From Syntrophobacteraceae bacterium (GTDB taxonomy: Bacteria; Desulfobacterota; Syntrophobacteria; Syntrophobacterales; Syntrophobacteraceae): DNA of 64,000 nucleotides. The notes beneath the pieces are model-generated. The model did not search any database. It saw only the letters and a list, made by a program, of their open reading frames with translations, and was not told where the DNA came from. The translations under genes were made by a program, and so were the position numbers. The stretch is from the NCBI GenBank assembly GCA_052147195.1, contig JBKQLC010000114.1:450-64449 (forward strand), given 5' to 3'. Positions 30,627-49,114 of the stretch are shown here, piece after piece. Within the stretch, counting starts at the first letter, position 1. Each line of letters begins with the position of its first letter.

Positions 30627-30730
30627 GGGGTCGCTATTCATACAGGTGCTCCAAATCCAGATTGGTAGCGCTTTGAGCCTGATTTCACTAGTGGGTGGGG
30701 CGTATTTCATACACTTTCCCGATTCCAGCC
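30626..30730 (+). promoter_or_regulatory. Copy A of a repeated ~100-bp noncoding element (candidate enhancer/UAS)
   Basis: Shares ordered blocks with copy B at 42485-42588: GGGGGTCG, TGAGCCyGATTTCA, GGGrCGTATTTCATACACT (15 nt identical) and GATTCCrGC. It contains the palindromic core GTAT-TTC-ATAC. Confidence 0.5.
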
Positions 30731-31066
30731 TTGTGCGGGATCGGAAAAAAACTTTTGAAAGTTAAAAATAATTCTTTCCAGGCTTTTTCCACTTTAAGAA
30801 GCCCATGGTTTCCCACCTGCTATAAGTAGCTAAATTCACTCAAAACCTTCCGGGCTGTTTACGAAAAAACCTTAACATCCTACGCTCTTTTTCATGATTA
30901 TCTCCCCGTTGCGTCAAAGACTGCGGTGACCGGTTTACTATTCAACTAATCTCTAGTTTTTCGCTCTGACTTTCATCCAACGCGTGGGCGCCATTACCGC
31001 AACGATCGGTTCAGCCCGCCACGGCTTGACCACATCTAACAGCGATCAGACCATTCTGATTCCTCG

Positions 31067-31083
31067 TGGGCATAAATCTTGTA
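31067..31083 (+). promoter_or_regulatory. Candidate sigma-54 (-24/-12) promoter, copy A
   Basis: TGGGCATAAATCTTGTA. GGCAT then TTGT at canonical GG-N10-G spacing. The 16-nt core is repeated at 42740-42755 with 1 mismatch (GGGCACAAATCTTGTA). The -12 element reads TTGT instead of the consensus TTGC. Confidence 0.4.
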
Positions 31084-31858
31084 GTGTTGGTGAGTTCCTA
31101 CAAGCCTAATACCTTTTAGAGATTGGGTTTTTAGAGGTTGGGTCTGCGTCAGGTCGAGCTTCTGGTCGGCAGCAGCAGACCGAGCGTTTCTTGAAACGCC
31201 GGATATATGGATAAATCGGGCCGCATATCGGCGACCTGATGAATATTATAAACTGGTTACGTAAATCTTTGCTGATCCATCCGTCAGCTCTGAAACACCG
31301 GTTCAACAGTGCAATTTTACGATTTCAGCGCAATTCATACTTATCACGCTCCTTTCTCCTCCTGACCGCCCACTCCCTTCATGCGCAGGGTGCCGCCACC
31401 TCCTCGGCGGTGTGTGTTGTTTTCAACCCCCGCAGCGGCCAATCCGTCTGATTACACGGCACGCCAGCAAAGGCCTCTGCTTTAAGGTAACCGTTGTAAG
31501 GTTAACGATAGGATCAAGCGCGAAAATCACCAAAGGATATTTTATCGGTGATCCTTCGTGGTTCAGAGATAATCCTCATTATACCCGGATTGAAGATACG
31601 CCTTACCGGGAATCAATTGAGGATTTCAGATACAACTATTACCGCGAATATAGAATTGAGAGGAGGTGGTCAAGGGACGGCAATATCCCATTATAAGTTC
31701 TGGCTCTTTTTCGGGAGAATGATTGTTGTACGGAGGTCCTTTCTCACCGGGACGAATTACGCGAGTCAGGCCGGTTGCTAAACCATGTGGTGGCACTGAT
31801 GAAACATCATCGCTTTTAAACTCAGAATCAGAGGTCACCACGAACAAGGGAGGTAAAA

Positions 31859-33343
31859 ATGCCGGAAAAGCGAGATATCGAAATAAAGAGCCGGGCCGAT
31901 ACCATAGGCCTGATGGATCTGGATGTAAGACCCTACCCGGTTACTCCGCCGCCCTCTTACGAGGCGGTAAAGCCGATATATGAGAGAAGAAAGGCGCTGG
32001 AGTTCTGCAATTGGGCTGAGGAGAACCTAAGATTTGAAAAAAGATACGAGAAAGATGAGGCCCTGACAGGATACAGGATTCTGGACATCGGTCTGTGGAG
32101 ACTCGGCCACAAATTTTGCGCCTCTCTGTATGGCGAAGCCGGCGCGGAGGTCGTTTCCATCGAACCACCCAAAGGCGATCCGTTGAGGAAGCTGACACCT
32201 TTCGGCCGCGAAGAGTACCTTCTCAAAAACAAGGACAGCGGCGAAAAATGCGGCATGGAGTTCGTCAACGAGACGGTGAACACCCACTGTGTAACCCTCG
32301 ATGTGGAGACAAAGGAAGGGCAGGAAATTTTCAGGAAAATGGCAATGAACGTCGACGTCCTGATCGACGGGATGCCCCCCGGTTACATGGATAATCTTGG
32401 GATCGGGTATCGTCAGCTTAAGCAACTCAACCCCAGGATGGTCTACGTGTGGGTCGGCATGCTCGGCCAGTGGGGCCCCTGGAAGGACAAGCAATCCAAG
32501 TTCGGCCAGTGGATGCTCGAGCCTTTCGCGAGCGCCGCAAATTCCTGGATCCACAATACCGGCTTGGCCCAGGACCTTCTCCCGCGCGGCAAGGGCGGCG
32601 ATCCCACCCGCGCAGGCATTTGGCTTGCTGACTATGTTGCCGGGGCCCAGGCTTTCCTCAACTCCATTGCTGCCCTGTATTGGAGAGACGAATTGGGCGG
32701 TACCGGGCAGATGATCGAGGTCACGGGCGCCGAAGCTTTGATGGATATTCTCGACTTCGATATTACCTGGTATGGGTTTAATAAAAGTATAAAGGCCCGC
32801 ACCGGCGGCTGGGATGCGTGCCTCAACCAGTATGCCTGGAACCCCTGTAAAGACGGCTACATGATGATCGGCGGCCAGACCGACAAGCTCTGGTATAATA
32901 TAGGATTTTGCCTTGAGCGTGAGGAACCACAGTTCGGCCGGCTGATCCACGAAGATCCCCTCCTCAAGGAAATGGCGGCCAGAAACGCCTTGCACGCTCT
33001 TATAAAGACCTACACCCTGACCACCCGGTGGCTCAGAGACACTAACCGGGTGGAAGCAGAAACCAAGCTCCTCGAGTACCAGGTTGCGGCCGGGCCGGTT
33101 CTCTACATCGACGAGGTCTGCGAGTTCCCCCACTTCAAGTATCGGCCATGGGTCTACGTACATGAGACCGATTACGGCCCGCTGCTGATCGCTTCGAGCC
33201 CGGCGTCCTACCAGGTTCGCGCTCCTTTCAGGTGCAAGTGGATGGGCAGAGATCTCGGCTATGACAACTACGAGATCTATTTGAAATGGACTGGAATGGG
33301 GCAGACAGCAGTGAATCAAATGAAACAGAAGGGGGTGATATAA
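31859..33343 (+). CDS. Family III CoA-transferase (CaiB/BaiF/BbsF-like), long form, subunit 1
   Basis: 494 aa. [41 protein letters not shown] is the N-terminal family-III signature. LADYVAG supplies an Asp at the expected catalytic position. SD GGGAGG upstream. Confidence 0.8.
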
Positions 33344-34758
33344 TGGCGCAAGACCCGAGAGTAACACGCATGGAAGACCTGCCAGGCCCCAAGAGCAAAG
33401 GTGAAATGGACGAGTTTAAGATGCCCTACGAGGAATACTGCAGGAAGCTCTTCGATGTTGGCAATGAACACACCAAGCCCAAACCTCTTAACGGGATTCG
33501 GTGGCTGAGCTGCACCATGTATATCTTCACGCCGCACGCTGTGGCCAACCTGGCCGAGCTGGGGGCCGAGGTCATCAAGCTTGAGATACCGAGGATGGGT
33601 GAGCCCATGCGGCACACATCTCCCTTTAACGAGGTCTATCTCTATCCGTTCCACGATATGCGCCCCATGACCGGCACCGGCCTTGGCTATACTAACGCTA
33701 ACCCCAACAAGTATTTTGTGACAATGGATTATCACGTCCCCGAGATGAGGGAGGTGTTCTACAGCCTGGTGAAAAAATCCGACGGGCTCACCGAGCTCTA
33801 CCGGCCAGGCACCCTGGACAAATGGAAAATGAGCTACCGGTACCTGAGTGAAATCAATCCCAGGTTCATCTACGTTTGGGGCGGCGGTTTCGGCTACGGT
33901 CCCAAAGTATTTGGCGGTTCCTACGACATCCTGGGCCAGGCGCACGCCGGACTCGCCTCGATAACCGGCATGCACGAGTACATGGGAGGGCATTGCTCCA
34001 AGTGCACCAACTGGGTCATAGACTGGCAATCGGGCAACCTTATAAGCTGCGCGATCATGGCGGCCATTCATCATCGCAGAAAGACCGGGCTGGGCACCAT
34101 GATAGAATTCTCCCAAGTGCAGGTCCCCACAAGGATGCTCGGTCATACCACGACGATGTATGGCAAGTTCGGCATTGTCCGGCAGCGCTGGGGCAACTGG
34201 GACACTCAACTTGGGGTACACGGCATCATTTTGTGCGGCAAGTCCGATTTTCCGGATGCCGAAAATCCGCAGGACAAGTTCGATTCAAGATATGTACTGG
34301 TCAGCGCCTTCCAGGATCAGGACTTCAAGGAGCTGTGCGCCATCACAGGCCTGAAGGAACTCTATGAAAAGTACAAGGCTCACAAAGACCGAGTCGAAGG
34401 CGAGGCTCAGGTGGAGATTTATACCGCTTTGGAAAGATGGGCCGCAGACAAGAGCAGGTCTCAGGTAGCAAAGATTTTGACCGACGGGGGTCTTTTGGCC
34501 GAACCTGTTCGGAATGACCGCGAGGTTTATGAGAGTCCGCACTACCGTGAGAGAGGCACGGTCCGATGGATGGACGATCCTCTATTCGGTGATTTGGTGG
34601 TCCATGGCGGCTACAGCACCGGGTTGATGGAAAAGAGCCCCAGGAGGATTAACTGGCACTGGCGTCCGCTGGGTGCGGACAACAAGAAGATCTACCGTGA
34701 CATGCTCGGTGTTCCGCTGACCAAGATCGAAGAATGGTATAAAAAGGCCTACATCTAA
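33343..34758 (+). CDS. Family III CoA-transferase, long form, subunit 2 (paralog)
   Basis: 471 aa from ATG 33343 (TAATG overlap with subunit 1, SD AAGGGGGTGA). [40 protein letters not shown]. Asp in VIDWQSG. Confidence 0.8.
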
Positions 34759-34770
34759 GAGGAGGCTCCC

Positions 34771-35256
34771 GTGTGTGATATTATTTGGTGCAAGAAAGAA
34801 GTGAACGGAAAACCATGTGACACGATCAACTACCTGGACCCCTACTGCTTCTGGAACTGGGAAGGAAAGATCAACTGCGCCGAATGCGGCACGGTCTATT
34901 ACATTCACATGATTCAGGGCTTTATGTACATGGGACCTGAAGAAAGACCCGGCGAGAAGCCGGACACCTCACCCCTTTATGCGGACAAGCCTTACGACGG
35001 TTATACCAACTACAGACCAGGTGTGGAAGGCCGCACCAGACCTTTCCAGTGCACGCCCAGAACAAAATTGCTGGGAGTTGCCGACATGGTGAAATTCAGC
35101 ATCCGGGGCCGTCCCGTGCGTGGATGGCGTCCGCAGCCACCCTCCGCAGGTTTGGCCGGAAGCCTTGGCTTCAACTGGGATATTCAGAAACTGTCGCCCG
35201 AGGTCTGGGAGGAATATCAGAAGAAGCTGGCTGCCGGCGAAGTCAAAGACTGGTAG
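34771..35256 (+). CDS. Cys-rich protein of unknown family (161 aa), operon member
   Basis: GTG start 5 nt after AAGAGGAGG. The N-terminus holds six Cys (CDIIWC...C...C...CAEC). The remainder is Pro/Gly/Arg-rich. No family recognised. Confidence 0.6.
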   Translation: MCDIIWCKKEVNGKPCDTINYLDPYCFWNWEGKINCAECGTVYYIHMIQGFMYMGPEERPGEKPDTSPLYADKPYDGYTNYRPGVEGRTRPFQCTPRTKLLGVADMVKFSIRGRPVRGWRPQPPSAGLAGSLGFNWDIQKLSPEVWEEYQKKLAAGEVKDW

Positions 35257-35275
35257 ATTGAGAAAGGAGTGTTGC

Positions 35276-35512
35276 ATGTCACAAGAGTTGACACCTGAAG
35301 ATTTCCTGGACACCGTCCTGGTCCCGGAAAAAAAGAGTGACCATATATGCTGGCAGTGCAAATACTTGAAGCCGGTCCTCAAAGGCTCCAAGTTCCCGCC
35401 CGCGGACATTATCGGCTGGTGCAAGAAAATCCACTGGCCTCATTACTGGTGCGTAGCAGACTTCAACGTGGTGAAGAAGTGCTATGCCTATGACGCCAGG
35501 AAGAAGGCCTAG
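35276..35512 (+). CDS. Small Cys-rich protein of unknown family (78 aa), operon member
   Basis: ATG after AAAGGAG. ICWQCKYL...GWCKKIHWPHYWCVADFNVVKKCYAY (five Cys, Trp-rich). The track ORF 35120 start is probably spurious. Confidence 0.55.
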   Translation: MSQELTPEDFLDTVLVPEKKSDHICWQCKYLKPVLKGSKFPPADIIGWCKKIHWPHYWCVADFNVVKKCYAYDARKKA

Positions 35513-35513
35513 C

Positions 35514-35786
35514 ATGGAAGAAAACGTCCGTGAAGAACTCGATGTCCTCAAGGGCATGCTGAACAACTGGAAAACGGGTTTTTTGGGTTGGGCCTCCCCC
35601 GAAGGGGATAACGATCATGTGCTCCTTGAATTCAGCGAGGAAATCCAGATGCACGTCTATCCCTATGTAAAGAGATTGTTTGAGACGGATCAACTCAGCG
35701 AAGTCGAGGTCAAAGAGTTCATGCATTATTGCTTAAGCCAGGTTGAAGATCTTCGCTTCCAGTTGAGCAAAGCGCAAACCGACTAA
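35514..35786 (+). CDS. Small acidic helical protein of unknown family (90 aa), operon member
   Basis: ATG 35514 lies 2 nt after the preceding stop, with SD GGAAGAAGG. MEENVREELDVLKGMLNNWKTGFLGW... Confidence 0.5.
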   Translation: MEENVREELDVLKGMLNNWKTGFLGWASPEGDNDHVLLEFSEEIQMHVYPYVKRLFETDQLSEVEVKEFMHYCLSQVEDLRFQLSKAQTD

Positions 35787-35805
35787 AGCTAGAAGGAGGT
35801 TTAGT

Positions 35806-36228
35806 ATGCCAGAGAAATGCCGTGTGGTGGTATGCGGCTTTGACCCTATGCTCGTAAAAGCATATGTAGCCGCCAACGCGAGAGCCTGCTGGTGGCACGT
35901 ATCCGACGAGCTATACAATGAGTTCAAAATGCAGCCGAAAATGAAGGTCCAAGGGAAGCTTCTTAAAGTCTATTCGGGTAAAACCGGTCAAGAGGCAGAG
36001 GCTCCTGACGAACCATTTGAATGGGAATGCTCCAACGAGTCCGGCCTTGCGGTCTTGCTCCCGGCTGACGTTATCAAGAAGCACAAGCTCACGGAATTTC
36101 ATTTCCTCGAGTTGATGATCGACAAAATTGACGGCAAAGACGTTTATCCTGGCCAGGAAAAGATAAGTAAGAAGTGGTGGCCGCAGGAGAAGCTGAAATT
36201 GGGCTATGCACTCGATTACATCGGATAG
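35806..36228 (+). CDS. Protein of unknown family (140 aa), operon member
   Basis: Strong SD GAAGGAGG 7 nt upstream. MPEKCRVVVCGFDPMLVKAYVAANARACWWHVSDE... No family recognised. Confidence 0.6.
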   Translation: MPEKCRVVVCGFDPMLVKAYVAANARACWWHVSDELYNEFKMQPKMKVQGKLLKVYSGKTGQEAEAPDEPFEWECSNESGLAVLLPADVIKKHKLTEFHFLELMIDKIDGKDVYPGQEKISKKWWPQEKLKLGYALDYIG

Positions 36229-36301
36229 CCTGCAACGACTTCATAGTGTGAATTCCACTTTCCCCCGTGACCGGGGGAGAGTTGGGACCCAACACAGAGA
36301 C

Positions 36302-36337
36302 TCCCCTTTCCATTGCCAGGAGAGGGGGTTTTATTAT
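36302..36337 (+). terminator. Weak intrinsic terminator after the CoA-transferase operon, within a cluster of four hairpins (36258-36386)
   Basis: CCCCT-15 nt loop-AGGGG followed by GTTTTATTAT. Flanking stems: TCCCCCG/CGGGGGA (36258-36281), GTTGGG/CCCAAC (36281-36293) and TGAGCCCCA/TGGGGCTCA (36350-36386). Confidence 0.4.
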
Positions 36338-36433
36338 GATCTAACGCTATGAGCCCCATAGTGGGATGTGGCGACTTTGGGGCTCACGTTGTATTTGACA
36401 AAGAAAAGTACGAGTGTTCATTGAGGGGAAGAA

Positions 36434-37696
36434 ATGGCAAATAAAGCGATAGACGAGAGGCAGGACCCACACCCGGAAATAAAGCCGCTCATAGAGGATG
36501 AAAACCTGCCGGAGCACGAACCGGCACACCCTGGCTGGCTATCGATTGGTGAGATTTTGAAAGTATCGCATCCTGTCTTTGCAAAGAGCAGTTTTCTTAT
36601 CGGATATCATCATTCCAGCAATGTGTATTTGCTCGCAGGCGATTACCTCACCCTGGTGGACCCAGGCAATGATTACACTATTTTTTTTGATATTGAAAAA
36701 CTTGGGTATGATATTTTGGATATAAAGAAGGTCGTGTTCACGCACGGGCATCGCGACCACTGCATGGGCATATTCGAGATGTTGAGATTTCCCACCGTAA
36801 TTGAAAACAAGCAAGTCGAGATCATTATGCATGCAGAAGGTCCACAGGAGTTAAAAAGGATTACCACACAGGCCGGGTTTCCCCCAACAGAATTAGCAGG
36901 TGGAGAAACCCTTGAGCTGAGCGGCTTTGAATGGGAAGTAATCCATACTCCCGGCCACACAATCGATAGTATATGCCTGTATCACGAACCGACCGGGACG
37001 CTTATTTCCGGCGACTGCGTACTGCCCGATACCATGGCGGACGTAGACAAGACTGCCGGAGGCAGGCTGGACCTTTACTTGTACGGGCTCGGTCAGTTGA
37101 TGAAAAAAAGCATCGTTCATGTTCTTCCCGGCCATGGTGTGCCGGTGGCGTTCACCGGAAAGCGTACTGTAGAAGAAACATATGAAGGCTTAATAATGAA
37201 AATCTTAGAAGCGGCCCCCGAAGACAAAATGACCTGGATGGAAGGGGCGAAGCGGCTGGCTGACAAGGGGCTTTTGGCAGAGGTCGCATTTTGCTGTGAT
37301 AAAGAACTGACCCTCAGGCCGCATAATCTGGAAGCAATGCAGTTGAAGGCCCTTGCGTTGAACGATATGGGCCGGTGCGAGGAGGCCATCGAGGTTTTGG
37401 ACTTGATTTTGGCAAGGCAGGGCCACAATGCCTATGCTTTGACAGCCAAGGGTCAGGCATTGCTGGGTCTGACCAGATACGCTGACAGTCTGCCATATTT
37501 TGATAAAGCCATGGCGAAGGACCCCCAGATCAGGGAAGCTCAGGTCTTTAAAGGTATGGCATTGTATTTTATGGGCAGGTCTGAGGAGGCTATGGCAATC
37601 GAGGCCTTCAAATCCGAGTTCGAAGCAAGATGCAGGAGCCAATTTGACAAAGTGCGGCAAGCACCCGAATCAGATGCTCACAGCCATGACGTATAG
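36434..37696 (+). CDS. MBL-fold metallo-hydrolase fused to C-terminal TPR repeats (paralog 1)
   Basis: 420 aa. THGHRDHCMG (HxHxDH), TPGHTIDS, SGD, LPGHG. The C-terminal ~170 aa are TPR-like (LKALALNDMGRCEEAIEVLDLIL..., TAKGQALLGLTRYADSLPYFDKAM...). Confidence 0.85.
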   Translation: MANKAIDERQDPHPEIKPLIEDENLPEHEPAHPGWLSIGEILKVSHPVFAKSSFLIGYHHSSNVYLLAGDYLTLVDPGNDYTIFFDIEKLGYDILDIKKVVFTHGHRDHCMGIFEMLRFPTVIENKQVEIIMHAEGPQELKRITTQAGFPPTELAGGETLELSGFEWEVIHTPGHTIDSICLYHEPTGTLISGDCVLPDTMADVDKTAGGRLDLYLYGLGQLMKKSIVHVLPGHGVPVAFTGKRTVEETYEGLIMKILEAAPEDKMTWMEGAKRLADKGLLAEVAFCCDKELTLRPHNLEAMQLKALALNDMGRCEEAIEVLDLILARQGHNAYALTAKGQALLGLTRYADSLPYFDKAMAKDPQIREAQVFKGMALYFMGRSEEAMAIEAFKSEFEARCRSQFDKVRQAPESDAHSHDV

Positions 37697-37769
37697 GCGG
37701 CTGGACGGTTATATGTTCTGACTTGACCATTGTCCGATGGTTATGCACTCCCTCGGCAGGTATAGAAAA

Positions 37770-37961
37770 ATGGACGAGAAATTCTATCATGCTGCAAAAG
37801 CCCTGATAACTTACATTGATAAAGAGTATGTTTTCGATAAGTCCGCTGATATGGGTTGTGGCGGATTTGATACTTATCAATCAGAGACTTTTTACGATCT
37901 AATCGCAAATGCCAAAAAAGCCCTTAGCGATTTTGAGAATTCAATGAAAGAACTCGGATGA
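37770..37961 (+). CDS. Hypothetical small protein (63-74 aa)
   Basis: ORF 37737/37770-37961. The stop overlaps the next ORF start (ATGA). Predicted helical, with no strong SD. Lies in an AT-rich segment. Confidence 0.3.
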   Translation: MDEKFYHAAKALITYIDKEYVFDKSADMGCGGFDTYQSETFYDLIANAKKALSDFENSMKELG

Positions 37962-38221
37962 GTTGTTACCCTGAAAGGTGTCGCGGTAAAATGGCAATCG
38001 AGGAAATCAGTTACGAAGAGTACATGACAAAGCTTGATGAAATCGAGAAGCGCTACTTGTCCGATGAGAAAGGTTTTCCCGAGGGTGCGCGCGAGAAGGG
38101 GTTGGAGATTTGTAAGAAGTTCCGGCGAGAAGTGAAGGCGTTGGGTCCTGAAAATTGTTTATATTACATCGACACGGTGTATGGGTTGCCGATGCACAAA
38201 CCCAAGCAACGCGAAGGATGA
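37958..38221 (+). CDS. Hypothetical small protein (76-87 aa)
   Basis: The ORF is coupled by ATGA to the previous one. Lys/Glu-rich helical sequence (ISYEEYMTKLDEIEKRYLSDEKGFPEGAREKGLEICKKFRREVKAL). Confidence 0.35.
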   Translation: MSCYPERCRGKMAIEEISYEEYMTKLDEIEKRYLSDEKGFPEGAREKGLEICKKFRREVKALGPENCLYYIDTVYGLPMHKPKQREG

Positions 38222-38338
38222 GTTGTAGTATTCAACCCGGTTGGTTCCAGTCCGGAGAGGTGCTCTCTGGCTGGATCATTCTTCGGCTGCGGCCCGATTG
38301 CGTACCCCTGCCAGGTCCAATATAAAAGCCTGTATATA

Positions 38339-38521
38339 ATGGTGGAAAAAGAAACTATTCAAAATGTTACATGTGCACACTGTGATACTAGGCTGACCTT
38401 GGAGGAGGCTGTTCACTACGAACACAGGCTGCTTTACTGTGAGCACTACCATTGCGGTGAGTGCGATCCCATAGGCGTTTGGGATTGTGTGAGTCACGAC
38501 ACGGACATGGACGTTCATTGA
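38339..38521 (+). CDS. Hypothetical Cys/His-rich mini-protein (60 aa, zinc-ribbon-like)
   Basis: CAHC...YCEHYHCGEC...C spacing suggests metal binding. Weak RBS. Convergent with the amidotransferase genes. Confidence 0.3.
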   Translation: MVEKETIQNVTCAHCDTRLTLEEAVHYEHRLLYCEHYHCGECDPIGVWDCVSHDTDMDVH

Positions 38522-38531
38522 CCCTTCCTTA

Positions 38532-39275
38532 TCATATGTCTGCTTGCAGCAGTATATCACTTCCCACAATCGCCATTAGAAAGCCAATGGATTCTGCACG
38601 CCTGGAAAACCTTGTCCAGTTTTCTTCACTTAAGCCGTGCTCTACTGTGGTCAACAGCAATCCTCTTTCAAGACTGTTGCTTTCCTTAAGCAAGAGAAAT
38701 TGCCTGTGATTGCTGAATGCAAACAATACCGAGCCGTTAGTCAAAAGATAATTGTATGATCCAGGGTATTCCTCAATAAGTTGCCTGGAGGTGTCAGCCA
38801 CGGCCCTGAAGAGGCCGAAGATATCACTGCTTCTTTCTTGGCGAGCCGCCATACCGTCCATAAGATACTCAAAGATTCTTGCCGAATCACTAACTACATC
38901 ATCAAATCGAACCTTTTGACTTCGATAAGACTCTATGGCAGGGGACTTCCCATTGTGAGCGAAAATCCAGTTTTGACCTTTGAATTGAAGGACAAAAGGA
39001 TGAGCATGACATTCGTCTATAGGACCGCTGGTTCGTAAACGTACATGTGCGATAATAAACTTGCTTGCAACGACTCGAGCAAGCCTCTGAAAACCATCAT
39101 GGAATCTTCCTTCTTGATAGGCATGGGTGGCTGATTTCTCTACATAAGCTCGATTCTTCCTGAAAAATCCTATACCCCAGCCGTCCATATTCCTAGCCGC
39201 TTTGGCTGCAAAAATCGGCAAGGCCTTGGGCGCCGAGTAATTTGTCGCAGCAGACAGGGCGAATAAGTCGCACAT
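38532..39275 (-). CDS. Class II (Ntn, Cys-1) glutamine amidotransferase-like protein, YafJ-type, paralog 1
   Basis: 247 aa. MCDLFALSA...NMDGWGIGFF...HVRLRTSG...HPF...FAHNG is the Ntn GATase-II pattern, with Cys2 as the nucleophile after Met removal. Confidence 0.8.
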   Translation of the reverse strand: MCDLFALSAATNYSAPKALPIFAAKAARNMDGWGIGFFRKNRAYVEKSATHAYQEGRFHDGFQRLARVVASKFIIAHVRLRTSGPIDECHAHPFVLQFKGQNWIFAHNGKSPAIESYRSQKVRFDDVVSDSARIFEYLMDGMAARQERSSDIFGLFRAVADTSRQLIEEYPGSYNYLLTNGSVLFAFSNHRQFLLLKESNSLERGLLLTTVEHGLSEENWTRFSRRAESIGFLMAIVGSDILLQADI

Positions 39276-39391
39276 AACGGGGTCTTACCTGTCTTCGTAT
39301 ACAGGGTTGAATTCAATCGATCGCCTTTATCGGGCGGTCCTACTCCCGGCACGATTAGAGCCTGCCCTGCCTGCCGGTCGCAGTGTGAATT

Positions 39392-40150
39392 TTAGAGAAA
39401 AGCCTCTTGCGTCACATTGCCCAGATACAATACGTCTGGTCCCGCAACCACCAGAAGCTTTCCCAGGGTGTTACTTTCCGGCTCGATGGCAATCCATTCT
39501 TTGTCACTCAGTCCTTCCCCGATAGTGGTGAGGACAAGGCTATTTCCATTCCTTGCCGATTCCTTGAGGAGCATCAAAGTCCGAAAATTAGAAAAGGCAA
39601 AAAAGACTGACTCATTGGCTAGAACAAACGAATAATGGCCAGGATAGTCTGAAAGCAAGTTCCTAATGCTTTTTACCAGCGATCTGCCAAGACTCTCGTA
39701 AGGAGTGTACAGCAGATAAGAGATCAGTTGATCCCTTAAATATTCAAATACTCTGGCAGGATAAACATCCACATCTATCCTGGGTTCGTTTGCTGTTTGA
39801 TAATTGTCGATTTCTTTTATCAATCCGATATGCACAAATAGCCATACGTGGTTGAGAAACGATAAAGAAAATGGGTGATTCTGAGCAGTATGACGTCCAC
39901 CGCTCAACGGACAGCTAATGTGCGAGACTATGATTCTGCTGTCTACAACCCTTGCCAGCCTCTGGAAGCTCTCGTGGACTTGCTCGCTGTCATAGACCCG
40001 CTCTGCAGATTTCTCTACCAGAGCCTGGTTGTCACGATAAAATCCAATACCCCAACCGTTCATGTTTCGCTTGCCCTTTTCCGCAAATATCGGCAAGTAC
40101 TGTTGGGCCGTATAATTAACTCCCGCCGAGAGCGCAAAAATATCGCACAT
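39392..40150 (-). CDS. Class II (Ntn, Cys-1) glutamine amidotransferase-like protein, paralog 2
   Basis: 252 aa. MCDIFALSA...NMNGWGIGFY...HISCPLSG...HPF. The usual HNG is replaced by FVHIG, so this copy is divergent. Confidence 0.75.
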   Translation of the reverse strand: MCDIFALSAGVNYTAQQYLPIFAEKGKRNMNGWGIGFYRDNQALVEKSAERVYDSEQVHESFQRLARVVDSRIIVSHISCPLSGGRHTAQNHPFSLSFLNHVWLFVHIGLIKEIDNYQTANEPRIDVDVYPARVFEYLRDQLISYLLYTPYESLGRSLVKSIRNLLSDYPGHYSFVLANESVFFAFSNFRTLMLLKESARNGNSLVLTTIGEGLSDKEWIAIEPESNTLGKLLVVAGPDVLYLGNVTQEAFL

Positions 40151-40223
40151 CTTCTCTAATTCCCCTGTACAAAGTTAGCTCTTGCAATTCAGCCCGGACT
40201 GAGTTGCAACGGGAACATCCCGG

Positions 40224-41207
40224 TCACCCCAGCTTCAAACCCAACGGTTCTTCTCCCATCTTTGATATAGTAGACTTGTGTGCAATCCAACCGTTAATGC
40301 GATTCATATGACCAAATGCAAGATATATCTTATATATCGTTTTCAACCATTTATTTGCATTTGCATAGTAGTCGATTTTCGGCACTCGTCCATCGCTCAG
40401 TTCGACTAAAAACTGCGTGAAGATAATCCACTGCATTGCTTCATCTATTTGCTGGAGAACAGCAGAGTGATATCGGAACTCAATGGTGGATCGATACCAA
40501 TACGAATGCAGATTGAGCCCATGGTAACGAGTCAAGTCGTACCTGTCAGATGCGCTGCGAGTGGAATCATGCCCATTGTTCTGGCAATACCATAACTCCT
40601 TGATTTTACAACCGTTCTTCTCACATGTATCGTCACAATCACCCAATTTACTGAATAAATCGACATCGAGATCCATGGGACGGCAAGTAGCTTTATCGAT
40701 CCTGCCCCCAGCGATCAGAAGATAAATATAGTCCTCCATTGCATAGACAATTCTTATGAGCTCTTTCAGGTGTTTGCACTCATAAAGTTTAGCATCTACG
40801 CCGTGATGAACGTGAAATCCACATGATTCGTCTATTTGCGCTCCACGGATTTCGCCGAGCAACTGGAAGAAGCGATACGATTCCATTAGTCCCTCAAAGC
40901 CGCGAAGTATCGGGCTTATAAGTTCCACGCCACCTCGGTGAACTATGGAAGCATCTTCTTCAAAGTGCCAGGAATGCCTGTCCGTGCCTAGATTTAGTCC
41001 GTAGTCATCTAGTAATTGAAGGAAGCTTCTGCCATCTCGGGCTTTCGAATGGATGTTGTAAGGTTTGATTATGCCGTTGTCGGGCGGTAAGATATAGTAG
41101 TCCAGGCCATAGAACTCGATTTCCACTCCGAGAGGCCTATCCGTGAAATAGCACAACATCGGGTACTTCTTCTTAAGTTTTGCGACCGACTCTTGATGCT
41201 CTTGCAT
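40224..41207 (-). CDS. Amidoligase_2-family (glutamine-synthetase-fold) putative amidoligase
   Basis: 327 aa. GVEIEFYG, WHFEEDASI...GGVELISP, CGFHVHHG, STIEFRYH are the block motifs I associate with the PF12224-type amidoligase. SD GAGGAAGAG upstream. Confidence 0.75.
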   Translation of the reverse strand: MQEHQESVAKLKKKYPMLCYFTDRPLGVEIEFYGLDYYILPPDNGIIKPYNIHSKARDGRSFLQLLDDYGLNLGTDRHSWHFEEDASIVHRGGVELISPILRGFEGLMESYRFFQLLGEIRGAQIDESCGFHVHHGVDAKLYECKHLKELIRIVYAMEDYIYLLIAGGRIDKATCRPMDLDVDLFSKLGDCDDTCEKNGCKIKELWYCQNNGHDSTRSASDRYDLTRYHGLNLHSYWYRSTIEFRYHSAVLQQIDEAMQWIIFTQFLVELSDGRVPKIDYYANANKWLKTIYKIYLAFGHMNRINGWIAHKSTISKMGEEPLGLKLG

Positions 41208-41683
41208 ATATGGCTCTTCCTCACAATCTAGAAGGCCACCCGCTGCCGGCCCAGGTCCCGGTGAGCGGCGCTTCAGCCTTTTGAAGTGATTGAGCGACCA
41301 CGCATGAAATAAATAATAACGTATTGTATCTAGTCTATCTTACGACGAGAATACAAATCGGCCATATTTTTTTGATCGCCCGTTAATGTGTTCCAGAGCA
41401 GTATCTTTCAAGAAGGATGCCGATGAACCGCCCGCGGTCCCGCCAGAGGCAGGAGTGGAAATGTCTTTCCCAATGCTCACTGCGCCTCTGTCATCTCGGA
41501 CATGCCCCACCCTGGATCTCGGGTCCCCTGATCTGGTCCGGGACGTGCTCGACAGGACCTCCCGGGACGTGGAGATGGCCTTTTCCTGGTCTTGGTGTGC
41601 GAAAGGCAGACGAAGAACTTCGGGGCGGTCTTTATTGCGAAGACCGGGAAGTCGCTTCCGGTCATAATCCGGCCCGCAGCATA

Positions 41684-42118
41684 TTATTCGAATATCTCAA
41701 TCAGCTCGATTTCAAATTTGAGTAGTTTTCCAGCAAGCGGGTCATTTGCATCAAGAACCACGCTGTCTTCGGTAATAGCCGTGATAGTTGCAATCGTCGT
41801 TTCCCCATGGTTTGTGCGAATTTGCAGCTTCTTACCTAACTCAAGATTCAGGCCGGCCGGGGCCTGGGCTCTATTCATGACGAATACAAATTCTTGTCTG
41901 TGCTGACCGTAAGCCTCTCCCGGAGGAATTGAGATGCTCTTGGTGTCTCCTTCCTTCATACCGATGACTGCCTGTTCAAATCCTGGAAGTACGCTTCCCT
42001 TACCAACAGTAAATTCAAACGGCTCTTTCTCCTCGTACGTGGAGCTAAACACCGTGCCATCCTCCAGAGTGCCGTGATAATGAACCTTTACCTTATCTCC
42101 TTGCCTTGCCTGAGCCAT
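41684..42118 (-). CDS. FKBP-type peptidyl-prolyl cis-trans isomerase (SlyD/FkpB-like, short)
   Basis: 144 aa. GDKVKVHYHGTLEDGTVFSSTYEEKEPFEFTVGKGSVLPGFEQAVIGMKEGD is the FKBP core with an IF-type insert. SD AAGGGAGAA. Confidence 0.85.
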   Translation of the reverse strand: MAQARQGDKVKVHYHGTLEDGTVFSSTYEEKEPFEFTVGKGSVLPGFEQAVIGMKEGDTKSISIPPGEAYGQHRQEFVFVMNRAQAPAGLNLELGKKLQIRTNHGETTIATITAITEDSVVLDANDPLAGKLLKFEIELIEIFE

Positions 42119-42755: not shown

Positions 42756-43286
42756 TTACCAATAGAGGCCCCTCCTAGCTTCATCCATTCAGAAGTGTGG
42801 TTTTTAAAAAGTTTGGACGTGCAAGGAGTGGCGGTCACATCTGCGTGTAGCGGACTTGGTGGACGGGCTGATATGCAGGACCGGCCGGCTGATTGGCGGC
42901 TTGGTCATCAAGAAACTATGGGGATCAGTTCCATAAATCTCGGCGGCTCCATTCTTCAGTCTTCAAACTCGAGCTCAGCAGAGCGATTTTTCGATGCCAG
43001 CGCTGTTCAGTATCCAATCGTGCTTCTTTCGCATTCTGGCTGCCTTTCTCTATCCATGGCCAACTTACAAGCCTCTCAGAAGGACTCGTAAGGGTGTAGT
43101 CCACGAAAGAGATGAAATTCCTTTACTCGGCAACCCTCATATGACCCAGTAATTCATCAGCCGGGTCCTTCTTGCCACTTGGGGGGTTTGACAGGGACGA
43201 CCCAGGGGGTGCGGTAACGTTTCACCTTAACCTCACCCCTCTGCAAACCGGCAGTTCACATTTTACATTACCGGAAGGTGACACAC

Positions 43287-44561
43287 ATGGAACGCAAAGA
43301 GGATGCAAGAGCAAAAGGATGGGTCCCCGCCATAGTGAAGAATATTGAAACTGAACATTCGCCTAACGATGAGAATGAACCTGAGGCACCCGGTTGGATT
43401 TTCCTCTCAGAACTTTTTCAGCAACAGGACCCACTTTCCAAAAATATGCTCTTCTTGGAAGGATATGATTTTACCTCCAACATTTACATGATCGTTGGGG
43501 AATCCCTCACGATAATCGATCCGGGCAGCGACTATACCGCGTTCATGCAACTGTTCCAGCAGCCCGAATATGCCCCCGATGACATAAGAAAAATAGTATT
43601 GACCCACGGGCACCCGGATCATGCATTGGGCGCCATCGAGCTGTTCAGGTATCCAGCGGTCAGAGAAAATCCGCAACTGGAAATAATTCTACACGCTGAC
43701 GGCCCGGTCGAACTCAAAAGAATCATCCGTGAATTCGGCGTCCCCTTGACTGAGGTCCGAGGAGGTGAAACACTCGATCTCAGCGGGTTCCAGTGGAAAG
43801 TCATTCCAACACCCGGGCATACGATCGATGGCATAAGCCTCTATCATGCTCTAACGAAAACCCTCATTTCGGGCGATATGGTGCCATATTCTATGACTGC
43901 CCCCGACAGGGAGGGGGGCGAACGGATGGACCAATACCTAGTCAGCATGAGATCGCTACTGAGTCTGGACATTGCCGATGTATTACCGGGCCATGGCCCC
44001 CCCATAGCTTCGGCCGGTAAAAAGGTCCTTGAAGAGAGCTACAGCGAGGTGCTTCTCAAAATTCTGGGCTCCGGGGCCGAAGAATCGTCTTCATGGTTAG
44101 AGATTGCTTCCGCCGCCGCCAACAGGGGGCTTCATCAGGATGCGGTCATCTGCTGCGACATGGCCATGTCCATTCACCCGGAACAATACAGGGCGTCTAA
44201 GCTCAAGGCCTTCTGCCTAAATGATCTGGGCGAATATGACAGGGCGCTCGAAGCCTTTAACCTTTTAGAAAAAAGCTCCCCTCTTGAAAAAGATGATGTG
44301 TTTACAATAATGGGCCGTGGAAGTTCTTTCCTTGGTCTCGGGCGCTACGATGAAGGCCTGCGTTGCTTCGACAGGGTCCTTGAGACGATGCCGGATAACA
44401 AAGAGGCCCTGGTATACAAGACATTCGCAATTCACCTTTCCGGCAGGGTCGATGAAGCCATGCAAATCGAGGAATTCAAGAAAGGCTTCATAGCCAGGTT
44501 CAAAGAAGAACTTCTAAGGTACGCTCCATCCGAGAATACAGGGAACACTGAAAGCCCCTGA
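43287..44561 (+). CDS. MBL-fold metallo-hydrolase fused to C-terminal TPR repeats (paralog 2)
   Basis: Colinear with 36434-37696 (THGHPDHALG, TPGHTIDG, SGD, LPGHG, TPR tail). ATG 43287 lies 6 nt after GGAAGGTG. The track GTG at 43278 sits inside the SD. Confidence 0.85.
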   Translation: MERKEDARAKGWVPAIVKNIETEHSPNDENEPEAPGWIFLSELFQQQDPLSKNMLFLEGYDFTSNIYMIVGESLTIIDPGSDYTAFMQLFQQPEYAPDDIRKIVLTHGHPDHALGAIELFRYPAVRENPQLEIILHADGPVELKRIIREFGVPLTEVRGGETLDLSGFQWKVIPTPGHTIDGISLYHALTKTLISGDMVPYSMTAPDREGGERMDQYLVSMRSLLSLDIADVLPGHGPPIASAGKKVLEESYSEVLLKILGSGAEESSSWLEIASAAANRGLHQDAVICCDMAMSIHPEQYRASKLKAFCLNDLGEYDRALEAFNLLEKSSPLEKDDVFTIMGRGSSFLGLGRYDEGLRCFDRVLETMPDNKEALVYKTFAIHLSGRVDEAMQIEEFKKGFIARFKEELLRYAPSENTGNTESP

Positions 44562-45453: not shown

Positions 45454-47100
45454 TCACGAATGCTGCCTCAGTAAACGGCGCAATAGTTTACCGGTTGGGG
45501 TCCTGGGCAGCTTTTCCATGTATTGAATAACCCGGGGGAGCTTGTAAACCGCTATATGGTCCCTCAGGAAATTGTTGATTTCATCGCTCAACTGATCCGA
45601 ACCGGTAAACCCCGGTTTCAGCTCTACCACCGCCTTTACAATCTGCCCTTTTTCAGGGTCTTGGATACCGACTATGCCCACATCCGCTATCGCCGGATGC
45701 TTTGCCATCGCTTCCTCGATTTCAGAGGGTGCGATTCGGTAGCCGGAACTTTTGATCATATCGTCTTCGCGAGATACAAAGAAGATGTTACCGTCCGCAG
45801 CCATGTGAACGGCGTCGCCCATTCGGTTCCAGCCGTCAACCACGCCCGATTTCTGCGATTTGAGCAGCTTCTCGTTGTTTTCGTAAGGCTTCCAGTAAAG
45901 GGTGCCCGAAGGGCCTTTGATTATCATGCTGCCCACGTCGCCGGGTTTGCATTCTTTGGAGGTTGAATCCACTACTCGAACCTCTACCCCGGGAAGAGCT
46001 CTTCCGATGGAGTTGGGTACGGGCTCAGAATTCAAAGTGTTGGAGGTTACCAGATGCAGCATTTCTGTCCCTCCGAGTCCTTCCCAGATGGGCTTGCCGG
46101 TAAGTTCGGCCCATCCCGTGAGTGTTGCCGCCCCGAGAGAATCGCCACCCGAAGTATAGAGCCTGACAGAACTGATATCATAGCTCTTGAATGCCGGGAA
46201 CTTCATAAGCGCACGGTATGCAGTCGGGAGCCCGGTCAGGACCGTTATCTTGTGCTTGCCGATGAGTTCCATCATGTCAGCAGGGGCAAATTTCGGAATC
46301 AGCGAGATAGCTGCCCCATCCTCGAAAGGAATGAGTGTGAAGGTACCGAAGCCGGCCGCAAAGGATACGGGCGCCGAACCTCCCAGCACGTCTCCAGGTT
46401 TGAGCTGATATACGTGTCTATTGACGATCTGAGTCTCAATTACCGCGGGACGGACGAAATGGACGCATCCCTTAGGCATTCCAGTTGTTCCGGACGTGTA
46501 AAGGATTACGCCGATATCGAAGCCGTCAAGCATTGTGGCTTCAAGATTGGGCGACCCTTTCGCGAGCATTTCTTCATAGACCAGATTGCCGGCGGCTTTG
46601 ACCTCCTCAGCAGTGTCCCCGATTACGATAACGCGGGTCCCGTGCTGAAATTTTGGCTTTGCAGCTTCGACCTGCTCCATTAGCGGCGCATTCACGACGA
46701 AATACTTCATTTCGGCATCGTTCACTACAAATGCGATCTCTTCGCGGGACCACAAAGGTGAAGTCGGGACCGGAATGGCCCCGATTTTCTCAATGGCAAA
46801 GATAGTGACCAGGGACGGAGGGGAGTTGACAAGGCGAATACCCACCCGGTCCTGGGACTCCACTCCAGCATCCTTGAGGGCATTGCCGAACTGATTTACC
46901 ATTTTCTGCAACTGGGCGTAAGTGATCGCCCGATCCATAAATTTAATCGCGGTGTTGTCTCCCCTGCCCTCCCTGACATGACGGTCAAGCAGAAAGTCGG
47001 CCAGGTTCAATTTATCCGGGGTGCTCGAAAATTCCTTCGGATTGAGGTATTCCGGCCAGCATTCTCTTCCCGGCAAATAGTTTTCAGGTATTTTACTCAT
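45454..47100 (-). CDS. AMP-forming acyl-CoA synthetase, aromatic-acid (benzoate/aminobenzoate)-CoA ligase-like
   Basis: 548 aa. YTSGTTGMPKGCVH (AMP-binding core), GDAVHMAADGNIFFVSREDDMIKSSGYRIAP, PRTPTGKLLRRLL. The N-terminal region is like benzoate-CoA ligase family members. Confidence 0.85.
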   Translation of the reverse strand: MSKIPENYLPGRECWPEYLNPKEFSSTPDKLNLADFLLDRHVREGRGDNTAIKFMDRAITYAQLQKMVNQFGNALKDAGVESQDRVGIRLVNSPPSLVTIFAIEKIGAIPVPTSPLWSREEIAFVVNDAEMKYFVVNAPLMEQVEAAKPKFQHGTRVIVIGDTAEEVKAAGNLVYEEMLAKGSPNLEATMLDGFDIGVILYTSGTTGMPKGCVHFVRPAVIETQIVNRHVYQLKPGDVLGGSAPVSFAAGFGTFTLIPFEDGAAISLIPKFAPADMMELIGKHKITVLTGLPTAYRALMKFPAFKSYDISSVRLYTSGGDSLGAATLTGWAELTGKPIWEGLGGTEMLHLVTSNTLNSEPVPNSIGRALPGVEVRVVDSTSKECKPGDVGSMIIKGPSGTLYWKPYENNEKLLKSQKSGVVDGWNRMGDAVHMAADGNIFFVSREDDMIKSSGYRIAPSEIEEAMAKHPAIADVGIVGIQDPEKGQIVKAVVELKPGFTGSDQLSDEINNFLRDHIAVYKLPRVIQYMEKLPRTPTGKLLRRLLRQHS

Positions 47101-47315
47101 ACTTGCTTCTCCCTTCGCTCAGTGAATCGCATAAACACCATAACCAATGTACAAATAAAATCGAAAGAAGGGGCAATAACCGTGCCAACGCCTGTACCAA
47201 CCTGCTCCGTGCAACGCACCCAAGCCGGTGACGTATAGTATATCTGGCACGATTCGTGTAAAGTAATCGTGAGGCCCTCAAACTGCTGCCGCAAGCTATT
47301 TCACGGGAGCAACTG

Positions 47316-48061: not shown

Positions 48062-49114
48062 ATGTTCCATTTTGGGAAAAGGAACACGCTCACAAGCCTT
48101 GCCAGGACATGCGGGTGAGCGGCTAAAATAGCTCCAGCAGTTTTGTTGGAGGCGCTCAAAGACCTGCCGGCTTCAACGGATCCGAATCTACTTGTCGGCT
48201 TCGACACGTCTGATGATGCAGCGGTTTATCGTGTATCCGACGAACTTGCCGTCATATCCACGGTGGATTTCATAACTCCTCCGGTTGACGATCCCATCTG
48301 GTTCGGCCGCATTGCCGCGGCCAACTCGCTTTCGGACATCTATGCAATGGGCGGCCGTCCCATAACCGCGTTGAATCTCATCATGTTTCCTTCGAAAAAG
48401 CTCAGCATGGAGATACTCAAAGCCATCCTCCAAGGTGGCTTTGAGAAAGTTGCCGAGGCGGGGGCATCGCTTGCGGGTGGGCATTCCGTCGAAGACGATG
48501 AGCCCAAATACGGCTTGGCCGTAACAGGTATTGTCTCGCCGAAAGGTATACTCACCAACGCCGGCGCCAAAGCAGGCGACCTGCTTATTCTCACAAAGCC
48601 GCTCGGAACGGGTGTCCTTTTTAACGCCTGTAGATCCGGAAAGCTTCCGTGGGATGAACTGGAGCAGGTTTTACCACAAGTTGCGGCATTGAACAGCACC
48701 GCCCTGGAGATAGCCCTCAAATCGGAGATACATTCCTGTACCGACATAACGGGTTTCGGAATCCTCGGACATGCCCTGGAAATGGCCCGTGCAAGCTCTG
48801 TCGCAATCACGATCGAGTTCAGCGCCCTGCCCTTCTATCCAAACGCCTTGGATATGTACCGCAAGGGCGAGACTACGGGCAGCAACAAGCCAAATCGAGA
48901 ACTCGTCGAGAATTTTCTTCGTCCGTCTACTCGGCTATCCCAAGAAGAGCATCAATTGCTTTTCGATCCTCAGACCTCTGGCGGCCTGCTGCTTTCCGTT
49001 CCTGCATCCCGGGCGCAAACCCTTCTGGGAGAACTAAGAGGCGGTGGAGTGAATTCCGCTTGCGTGATCGGCAAGGTAGACAGTAGCCCGAATCCTGAGA
49101 TCAGGCTGCTTTAG
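48062..49114 (+). CDS. selD: Selenide, water dikinase (selenophosphate synthetase), selenocysteine-containing form
   Basis: The track ORF (48143, TTG) lacks the catalytic N-terminus. The same frame extends upstream to ATG 48062 (SD AAGGTGG) through a single TGA at 48116-48118. This gives MFHFGKRNTLTSLARTCG-U-AAKIAPAVLLEALKDL, with Sec three residues before the catalytic Lys, as for Cys17/Lys20 of E. coli SelD. The rest is AIR-synthase-like (DDAAVY, SDIYAMGG, GGHSVEDDEPKYG). Confidence 0.88.
48132..48151 (+). promoter_or_regulatory. Putative bacterial SECIS hairpin for selD UGA recoding
   Basis: CUCCAGCA-GUUU-UGUUGGAG, an 8-bp stem (one G-U pair) with a G/U tetraloop. It starts 14 nt after the UGA. 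Confidence 0.55.

Follow-up and report, generated by a model that had tools for sequence, protein, structure and literature searches.

In a 64,000-nucleotide stretch of DNA from a Syntrophobacteraceae bacterium (contig JBKQLC010000114.1; hereafter the window, which denotes the whole stretch analyzed), three consecutive genes on the minus strand encode an Amidoligase_2 protein, AmL, and two paralogous proteins of the class-II glutamine amidotransferase (GAT) or N-terminal nucleophile (Ntn) type, GATa and GATb (Table 1). We propose that this triad is a self-contained enzymatic module specific to Syntrophobacteria. Judged from its sequence, AmL is most likely an ATP-dependent carboxylate-amine ligase. 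GATa is a selected, remodeled paralog that keeps the Ntn fold and nucleophile while its pocket has been rebuilt, and GATb has the canonical residues and looks more like an EgtC-type γ-glutamyl amidohydrolase than an ammonia donor. Of 51 non-redundant loci, 44 keep the three genes in this order, some of them between flanks that differ altogether, which is why we regard the triad as a real module. The window resembles a Syntrophobacteraceae chromosome, with its nearest loci in metagenome-assembled genomes of Syntrophobacteraceae, and the surroundings of the triad are ordinary chromosomal genes (molybdate transport, molybdo-hydroxylase, Dxr, Dus, SelD).

AmL belongs to the Amidoligase_2 family (PF12224), scoring 82.5 bits in Pfam against a cut-off of 22 and covering positions 3-242 of the 245 in the profile, and it also matches phrog_2443, annotated as 'amidoligase enzyme', with 76.5 bits. 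NCBIfam offered no model for AmL, and a sequence search of the PDB with it returned no match. The motifs GVEIEFYG, GGVELISP, GFHVHHG, and STIEFRYH, which the initial annotation had quoted from this family, are all found in its translation, and the three minus-strand genes lie exactly where that annotation had put them. Residues that are invariant among 45 homologs include E29, E31, E95, H132, H134, H135, R227, E243, and R245, and comparison with close relatives gave dN/dS values of 0.13-0.30, so that AmL is under purifying selection. The AlphaFold2 model of AmL (pLDDT 78.5, pTM 0.81) soundly predicts a glutamine-synthetase/GCS2-like fold: its best Foldseek matches were YbdK (1tt4, 1r8g), a 1-naphthylamine glutamine synthetase-like enzyme (8wwu), and glutamine synthetases. 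The match probability to YbdK and the glutamine synthetase-like enzymes was 0.98-0.99, but the TM-scores were just 0.3-0.36, and because they are this low (~0.3) the fold is a weak guide to the substrate of AmL. In a scan of 1.84 billion representative proteins, PF12224 had 3,479 members at E ≤ 0.001, while the narrow subfamily that includes AmL had 11 representatives below 1e-30.

GATa and GATb both belong to the GATase_4 family (PF13230), with 53.7 and 98.2 bits, respectively, against a cut-off of 23, and GATb additionally has a sub-threshold match to GATase_6, in line with the families first suggested for them. The best NCBIfam match of both is EgtC (TIGR03442), at 45.7 bits for GATb and 28 bits for GATa, scores far under the equivalog cut-off of 218.65. 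Among PDB sequences GATb matched 1te5 (best), 3mdn, and EgtC. The two paralogs are ~42% identical, GATa containing MCDIFALSA and FVHIG and GATb containing MCDLFALSA and FAHNG. In PurF, Asn101-Gly102 provide the oxyanion Asn-Gly, and Arg73 and Asp127 bind the α-carboxylate and α-amino group of glutamine or of a γ-glutamyl group; we take the catalytic positions of the window's GAT proteins to be those of PurF, GlmS, and EgtC. Across an alignment of 54 distinct GATa and 44 distinct GATb sequences, the Cys1 nucleophile, which follows the initiator methionine directly (MCD...), is invariant in both paralogs (54/54 and 44/44). All 44 GATb orthologs also have R79, H107, N108, G109, S129, D130, and S131 in addition to this cysteine (C2), in the motifs HVR, AHNG, and SDS. 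In the 54 GATa orthologs, position 108 is valine in 41, isoleucine in 12, and threonine in one, and never asparagine, with G109 kept; position 79 is mostly serine, asparagine, or threonine, with arginine in six; and position 130 is chiefly tyrosine, with aspartate in two. In the window, GATa has FVHIG at the oxyanion asparagine, HIS at the arginine, and VYP at the aspartate. Because the oxyanion asparagine is absent, and the arginine and aspartate usually are, GATa should not be filed as a glutaminase.

The remodeling of GATa is accompanied by a fixed set of residues of its own (Y18, D70, C80, G85, H87, E180, G202), as GATb has its own (D31, D60, D87, C89, N108, S129, D130, H190). Mean pairwise identity is equal within the two paralogs (0.664 versus 0.662), and dN/dS against close relatives is 0.09-0.19 for GATa and 0.13-0.16 for GATb. 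The equal identity and low dN/dS rule out that GATa is a decaying pseudogene. Its AlphaFold2 model (pLDDT 79, pTM 0.83) matches 1te5 best, and also EgtC (TM 0.63-0.72) and the PurF glutaminase domain, with a probability of 1.00 and TM-scores of 0.63-0.74 overall. The initial annotation had recognized one canonical and one divergent copy, a contrast that extends to all orthologs aligned, and had suggested that the two split the roles of amide donor and hydrolase. The functional divergence that this suggestion implies is supported by the residue patterns, whereas a conventional amide-donor role for GATa is not, with its oxyanion asparagine missing throughout and its arginine and aspartate usually missing.

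The module extends well beyond the window. In close relatives the order AmL-GATa-GATb was found in 10 of 11 representative genomes, and a metagenome scan added 80 further AmL loci at 53-92% identity. The triad stands on one strand and in the same order in 55 of the 63 related loci that have at least 1.9 kb downstream of AmL; the 44 non-redundant loci with the triad comprise 20 of 21 from the window's clade and 24 of 30 from a mostly marine-sediment clade. In two loci with an AmL homolog of 59% identity (L012 and L013), the triad is kept and both flanks are wholly different. This co-location goes far beyond chance and speaks against unlinked YafJ-type housekeeping genes, the outcome that the initial annotation had named as fatal to its proposal. 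Among the exceptions are four non-redundant loci with a solo AmL, and two marine-clade loci (L053 and L066) in which AmL and GATa, the latter with a GTG start, are kept and GATb is absent, the remodeled copy being the one retained beside the ligase. One locus (L010, 8001-9030) retains just the 5' half of AmL and lacks both GAT genes, with the micro-ORFs and the gene block described below following directly; we did not count it as a natural loss, which would be unsafe as neighboring genes are also fragmented and the gap, if not genuine, could stem from an error-prone assembly. Every carrier that a source names belongs to the Syntrophobacteria/Desulfobacterota, and Desulfoferrobacter suflitae is the cultured carrier named by NCBI.

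Clustering the neighbor genes of AmL loci de novo, and reaching a distant AmL clade by a representative-protein search and contig look-ups, gave three architectures. In the deep clade, AmL has ~270 amino acids and is 36-40% identical to that of the window, and a single GATase_4 gene lies upstream of it. The two genes overlap by a few bases at the AmL start in four of the six loci (one of the others is cut by a contig end, and one has a solo AmL), which suggests translational coupling. This deep-clade GAT keeps Cys1, the arginine, and the aspartate, has histidine in place of the oxyanion asparagine, is ~25% identical to GATa or GATb, and also has EgtC as its best curated match; the adjacent CoA-transferases are ~70% identical to those of the window. 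Since AmL is here paired with a single GAT, the ligase-Ntn pairing predates the GAT duplication. On the opposite strand lie orf131, an MBL-TPR gene, four small proteins, and two family III CoA-transferases, followed by a second MBL-TPR gene and a PCMT-like methyltransferase. In the window's clade (AmL >62% identical), AmL-GATa-GATb, optionally preceded by a gene for an FKBP peptidyl-prolyl isomerase, faces the same block, with three micro-ORFs at its end. In marine Syntrophobacteria (AmL 55-61% identical), the order is hotdog thioesterase, ADP-forming acyl-CoA synthetase, AmL, GATa, and GATb, optionally preceded by TatD; 28 of 36 loci have the synthetase immediately upstream of AmL, at a distance of 9 nucleotides or more, and the CoA-transferase/MBL-TPR block is absent near the triad (present in 1 of 18). 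Non-homologous thioester enzymes recur around the module in all three architectures.

Pairs of a glutamine synthetase-fold ligase and a GAT-like hydrolase, such as EgtA/EgtC, PuuA/PuuD, and IpuC/IpuF, work by ligation and later removal of a group. For the triad we tentatively favor, at a little short of an even chance, ATP-dependent γ-glutamyl-type ligation onto an amine followed by Ntn-mediated removal, because the nearest folds of AmL (YbdK, the 1-naphthylamine enzyme, and glutamine synthetase) ligate the γ-carboxylate of glutamate to an amine. In this process, AmL would activate the γ-carboxylate of glutamate, or of a closely similar acid, as an acyl-phosphate and join the acid to the amine. 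GATb, as a Cys1 Ntn amidohydrolase, would strip the γ-glutamyl group later, whether once the remainder of the molecule has undergone processing, to undo the ligation, or to act as a safety valve; we assign it this step because it is canonical in all 44 orthologs and its best curated match, EgtC, is a γ-glutamyl amidohydrolase. GATa, a product of tandem GAT duplication, probably has another amide or thioester intermediate as its substrate, or else is a subunit that confers specificity or regulation.

The partners of Amidoligase_2 proteins in other lineages bear on this model. Iyer, Abhiman, Burroughs, and Aravind reportedly predicted in 2009 that Amidoligase_2 genes share neighborhoods with GAT-II or AIG2 genes on phages, plasmids, and conjugative elements, and both that work and the Pfam description are said to name a GAT-like thiol peptidase or an AIG2/GGCT cyclotransferase as the neighbor. 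The two GATase_4 genes directly downstream of AmL fit this pattern. We inspected five mobile-element contexts, the phage and plasmid amidoligases being 23-28% identical to AmL. In Arthrobacter phage Ottawa (gp65/gp66), the ligase is followed directly by a canonical PurF-like GAT-II that has no BLAST similarity to GATa or GATb. Bacillus phage 055SW001 has a γ-glutamyl cyclotransferase (GGCT) ~1.1 kb downstream of its amidoligase, and a Firmicutes mobile element has a GGACT/AIG2 cyclotransferase two genes downstream, while the amidoligases of a C. perfringens plasmid and of a Porphyromonas phage have no annotated partner. A γ-glutamyl(amine) cyclotransferase therefore stands in place of a GAT in two of the five relatives. 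Because a cyclotransferase cannot replace an ammonia donor but can replace an enzyme that removes γ-glutamyl groups, this partner swap indirectly favors removal. To our knowledge no Amidoligase_2 member has been assayed, and our search of the 2024-2026 literature found no biochemical work on any PF12224 member, none having been assayed in the accessible literature to 2026. Reports on a Klebsiella fimbrial 'amidoligase' were set aside, as that enzyme is an ATP-grasp protein irrelevant here. Amidoligase_2 papers published in 2023-2024 refer only to the hypotheses of Iyer et al, 2009, which agrees with the earlier description of the Amidoligase_2 and GAT-II association as known and uncharacterized, and one report describes Phage-ZRK32 as carrying an amidoligase with a GAT, a GGCT, and a glutathione synthase (PMC10945688).

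The module can be set beside several known systems. It shares with the phage and plasmid systems the profile hidden Markov model family of the ligase and, as in phage Ottawa, a Cys1 class-II GAT-fold protein that follows it. However, it is chromosomal and lies among housekeeping genes, its ligase is only distantly related, its partners are of the YafJ/EgtC GATase_4 type rather than PurF-like, it has two of them in tandem with one remodeled, and its flanks hold thioester enzymes instead of DNA-metabolism genes. The EgtA/EgtC pair of mycobacterial ergothioneine biosynthesis likewise combines a ligase of the glutamine synthetase/GCS2 fold with a standalone Cys1 Ntn protein. Of the curated models, that of EgtC matches GATb and the deep-clade GAT best, and the EgtC structure is among the top matches of GATa. 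EgtA is a GCS2-type γ-glutamyl-cysteine ligase, and YbdK-type GCS2 proteins are the top fold match of AmL, but AmL itself is a PF12224 protein. The window differs further in that its GAT scores fall far under the EgtC cut-off and in its second, remodeled Ntn paralog, and among the window open reading frames (ORFs) scanned there were no EgtB- or EgtD-like genes. In PuuA/PuuD, IpuC/IpuF, and the aniline and 1-naphthylamine enzymes, a glutamine synthetase-fold ligase γ-glutamylates an amine and a GAT-fold hydrolase removes the group, and 8wwu from this group is among the best fold matches of AmL. The PuuD/IpuF-type hydrolases have the class-I (triad) GAT fold and not the Ntn class-II fold, and the ligases are full-length glutamine synthetase type I/III homologs of ~450 amino acids, compared with roughly 300 for Amidoligase_2; unlike in those amine γ-glutamylation pathways, no oxidase or dioxygenase gene is encoded beside the triad. 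YafJ-type proteins such as P. aeruginosa PA1307 (1te5) share family, size, and fold with the two GATs, 1te5 matching GATb best in sequence and GATa best in structure. They are usually annotated as single genes, whereas here two diverged copies are fixed downstream of a ligase, and GATa is without three of the four signature residues of YafJ-type GATs.

Table 1 Coordinates of the module and of neighboring features in the window.
Feature	Position	Strand	Basis or remark
AmL, Amidoligase_2, 327 aa, first gene of module	40224-41207	-	ORF list and Pfam
GATa, remodeled YafJ/EgtC-type Ntn paralog, 252 aa	39392-40150	-	ORF list and Pfam
GATb, canonical YafJ/EgtC-type Ntn paralog, 247 aa	38532-39275	-	ORF list and Pfam
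Convergent block: two family III CoA-transferases, four small proteins, MBL-TPR1	31859-37696	+	Pfam from identical contig L021
Extended orphan operon-like block including PAS/sigma-54 activator	27933-37696	+	Conserved
MBL-TPR1	36434-37696	+	Pfam
Micro-ORFs s74, s87, s60 (74, 87, 60 aa)	37737-38521	+	Tail of block operon; end 10 nt from GATb stop
FKBP-AmL spacer	41208-41683		476 nt
SlyD/SlpA-type FKBP peptidyl-prolyl isomerase	41684-42118	-	FKBP_C 91.5 bits, PRK15095 81.5 bits
Second MBL-TPR paralog	43278-44561	+	Between response-regulator-like gene and FKBP
AMP-forming acyl-CoA synthetase	45454-47100		
Near-consensus sigma-54 element	47172-47187	-	~70 nt upstream of AMP-forming acyl-CoA synthetase gene
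SelD	48143-49114		
MobA-like nucleotidyltransferase, HD domain, histidine phosphatase fusion	8052-9848	-	
AMP-binding protein and radical-SAM protein with HMPTM-type zinc ribbon	10043-12756		Adjoin the MobA-like fusion
Peptidase_C70 (AvrRpt2-like papain-type cysteine protease) and fibronectin type III domain in one protein	21398-22552	-	

The block of CoA-transferase, small-protein, and MBL-TPR genes is a candidate functional partner of the module. It lies downstream of the triad in 14 of 14 window-clade loci and adjoins the distant-clade AmL in all six loci, where the 36-40% identical ligase stands tail-to-tail with the same genes. Its orf161 and second CoA-transferase remain ~70% identical even where AmL is just 36% identical. 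The CoA-transferases score far below every NCBIfam cut-off, their nearest types being those for mesaconate, oxalate, and glutarate, and the four small proteins have no Pfam or NCBIfam match. Two of these small proteins are Cys-rich: orf161 ('MCDIIWCKK...CAECG') and one of about 90 residues ('DHICWQCKYLKP...WCKKIHWP'). The best matches of MBL-TPR, all sub-threshold, are to GloB, a glutathione-thioester hydrolase. Through the block, MBL-TPR is the sole one of the previously suggested partners whose linkage reaches the deep clade, and this part of the suggestion gains support. Near the marine-clade triad the block is absent. A second MBL-TPR paralog in the window, ~43% identical to the first, occurs in some relatives (L007, L022, L032, L033) and is absent from most others of the window's clade.

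The micro-ORFs and the FKBP gene, also put forward as targets or partners, fared less well. The micro-ORFs are conserved at 63-93% in relatives, with conserved cores, and 13-17 of 40 triad loci have them, in every case alongside MBL-TPR. Orthologs of s74 and s87 differ at their C-termini, and s60 is zinc-ribbon-like (CxxC...CxxC) with a conserved end, ...SHDTDMEVH. Pup- or ubiquitin-like tags are an unlikely role for them, because they have no ligatable C-terminus (no conserved Gly-Gly, Gln, or Glu end), are encoded on the opposite strand, and accompany a minority of triads. They have no match to a Pfam or NCBIfam family, and BLAST found no homology between them and orf131 of the deep clade. 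The second and third micro-ORF appear to form a single fused reading frame in L039 and L032. The FKBP gene is directly upstream of AmL in 16 of 25 non-redundant window-clade loci and in none of 42 marine-clade loci, and is downstream of GATb in L063; it is a clade-specific accessory neighbor and not a core part of the module. Its spacer to AmL shrinks to ~25 nucleotides in L002-L004, and in the window holds no notable ORF and no Rfam match.

Scans of the window for tRNAs and Rfam families gave zero matches, and there is therefore no riboswitch clue. A promoter and terminator scan around the triad operon found signals that were not above chance, and no PADLOC defense-system model matched AmL, GATa, GATb, either MBL-TPR, orf161, orf140, or FKBP. 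In a search for sigma-54 promoters, total matches equaled chance and no convincing site lay upstream of AmL or of the block and its CoA-transferases, so there is no sign of co-regulation by the neighboring PAS/sigma-54 activator. The sole convincing site, the near-consensus element TGGCACGGTTATTGCC, was seen elsewhere in the window, ahead of the AMP-forming acyl-CoA synthetase gene; this gene and that for a YbgC-type thioesterase lie a few kb upstream of AmL. Upstream of GAT-AmL, at a distance of a few genes, four of five deep-clade loci (L105-L109) encode SelD, a Se/S-carrier protein, a cysteine-desulfurase-like aminotransferase, and TusA, with the full set in L106, L107, and L108, and SelD is near the module in the window as well. 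The proximity of SelD and TusA is probably inherited synteny. Far from the triad, the window also encodes a three-domain fusion with a MobA-like part and a protein that joins a Peptidase_C70 domain to a fibronectin type III domain (Table 1).

Several points weigh against γ-glutamyl ligation and removal. Glutamate as the donor follows from superfamily-level fold similarity at TM-scores of 0.3-0.36, a weak guide, and GATb has the full residue set of a plain glutaminase and may supply ammonia. The hydrolase is not always encoded alongside the ligase, GATb being missing from the four solo-AmL and the two AmL-GATa loci, and two of the five mobile-element amidoligases inspected have no annotated partner. 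The model also leaves the role of GATa unaccounted for. Finally, the thioester neighborhood could reflect synteny inherited within one class and not function, and UvrC and SelD likewise accompany the locus in the deep clade. This last consideration is taken to its limit if AmL and two ordinary YafJ-type housekeeping amidohydrolases are simply neighbors without a shared function, as might be argued from the confinement of all source-named carriers to Syntrophobacteria/Desulfobacterota and from the unrelated UvrC and SelD staying nearby. We consider this very improbable: the triad survives complete replacement of both flanks, its genes keep one order and one strand in 44 of the 51 non-redundant loci, the GAT-AmL overlap in the deep clade hints at translational coupling, and independent phage Amidoligase_2 lineages pair with an unrelated GAT-II subfamily.

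The residues of GATb raise a different alternative, a glutamine-dependent amidotransferase complex in which GATb would hydrolyze glutamine and deliver the ammonia to AmL, which would use ATP to activate a carboxylate and turn it into a carboxamide, with GATa as a catalytically weakened docking or regulatory subunit between them. GATb has the complete class-II glutaminase set in all 44 orthologs and counts the glutaminase domains of PurF and GlmS among its fold relatives, enzymes of the glutamine synthetase fold use ammonia as a nucleophile, the Arthrobacter phage ligase is followed by a PurF-like canonical GAT-II, and a dead-looking adaptor would explain both why GATa adjoins AmL and the loci with AmL and GATa only. 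However, the GATase_4 proteins here are standalone, without a synthase domain, and the sole characterized standalone GATase_4 protein known to us, EgtC, is a hydrolase. We know of no glutamine synthetase-fold ligase described with a GAT subunit as ammonia donor, the cyclotransferases that replace the GAT in other Amidoligase_2 contexts cannot donate ammonia, and an adaptor would need no invariant Cys1, yet it is present in 54 of 54 GATa sequences. Such a complex is rather unlikely, although it is the main rival of the model. The thioester enzymes nearby allow another scheme, which we rate somewhat lower, in which the module would be an N-protection and deprotection device for thioester chemistry. 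AmL would γ-glutamylate an amino-carboxylate, or else a cysteine-type thiol precursor, on its amino group, so that the protected molecule could be carried as a CoA or other thioester without cyclizing or reacting with itself; the carriers would be the CoA-transferase/MBL-TPR block, the AMP- or ADP-forming acyl-CoA synthetases, and the hotdog thioesterases. GATb would then deprotect the product, and GATa would handle the thioester-bearing intermediate through its newly fixed C80/H87/E180 set. More doubtful again is a modification of proteins or peptides, in which AmL would add an amino or other small acid to a lysine or N-terminal amine (or ligate a peptide C-terminus), the Ntn proteins would, as thiol peptidases, de-modify or process the product, and FKBP would chaperone the substrate. 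GGACT enzymes act on ε-(γ-glutamyl)lysine-type isopeptides, and a partner of this type occurs with an amidoligase elsewhere; a PCMT-like protein-carboxyl methyltransferase lies in the adjacent deep-clade block, small conserved ORFs are nearby, and FKBP is upstream in 16 of 25 window-clade loci and downstream of GATb in L063. Papers citing Iyer et al, 2009 attribute a proposal of this kind for amidoligase families to that work. Yet the micro-ORFs have no conserved ligatable C-terminus, are encoded opposite the triad, and are missing from the majority of triad loci, FKBP is found in none of the 42 marine-clade loci, none of the genes conserved with the triad throughout the three architectures resembles a precursor-peptide gene, and no proteasome or protease partner was seen.

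New here are a chromosomal Amidoligase_2 subfamily specific to Syntrophobacteria, a YafJ/EgtC-type GAT partner rather than the phage type, a tandem GAT duplication in which one copy is remodeled yet under selection, and a recurring thioester-enzyme setting that includes an orphan conserved block. If the module is a mere pair for γ-glutamyl salvage or detoxification, the result is ordinary; if it protects amino groups during thioester chemistry, it would be a new pathway of anaerobic Syntrophobacteria and provide the first PF12224 substrate. PF12224 is a large family, predicted 15 or more years ago and spread over phages, plasmids, and genomes, and the module, with its fixed three-gene operon, cultured carrier, natural contrast of GATa and GATb, and three settings that point to thioesters, is a tractable entry to the substrate of the family. 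Solving it would assign the chemistry of PF12224 and explain why a Cys1 Ntn protein can shed its oxyanion and binding residues under selection, and might uncover a new CoA-transferase/MBL-TPR pathway in the syntrophic and sulfate-reducing bacteria that live in peat and in marine sediment.

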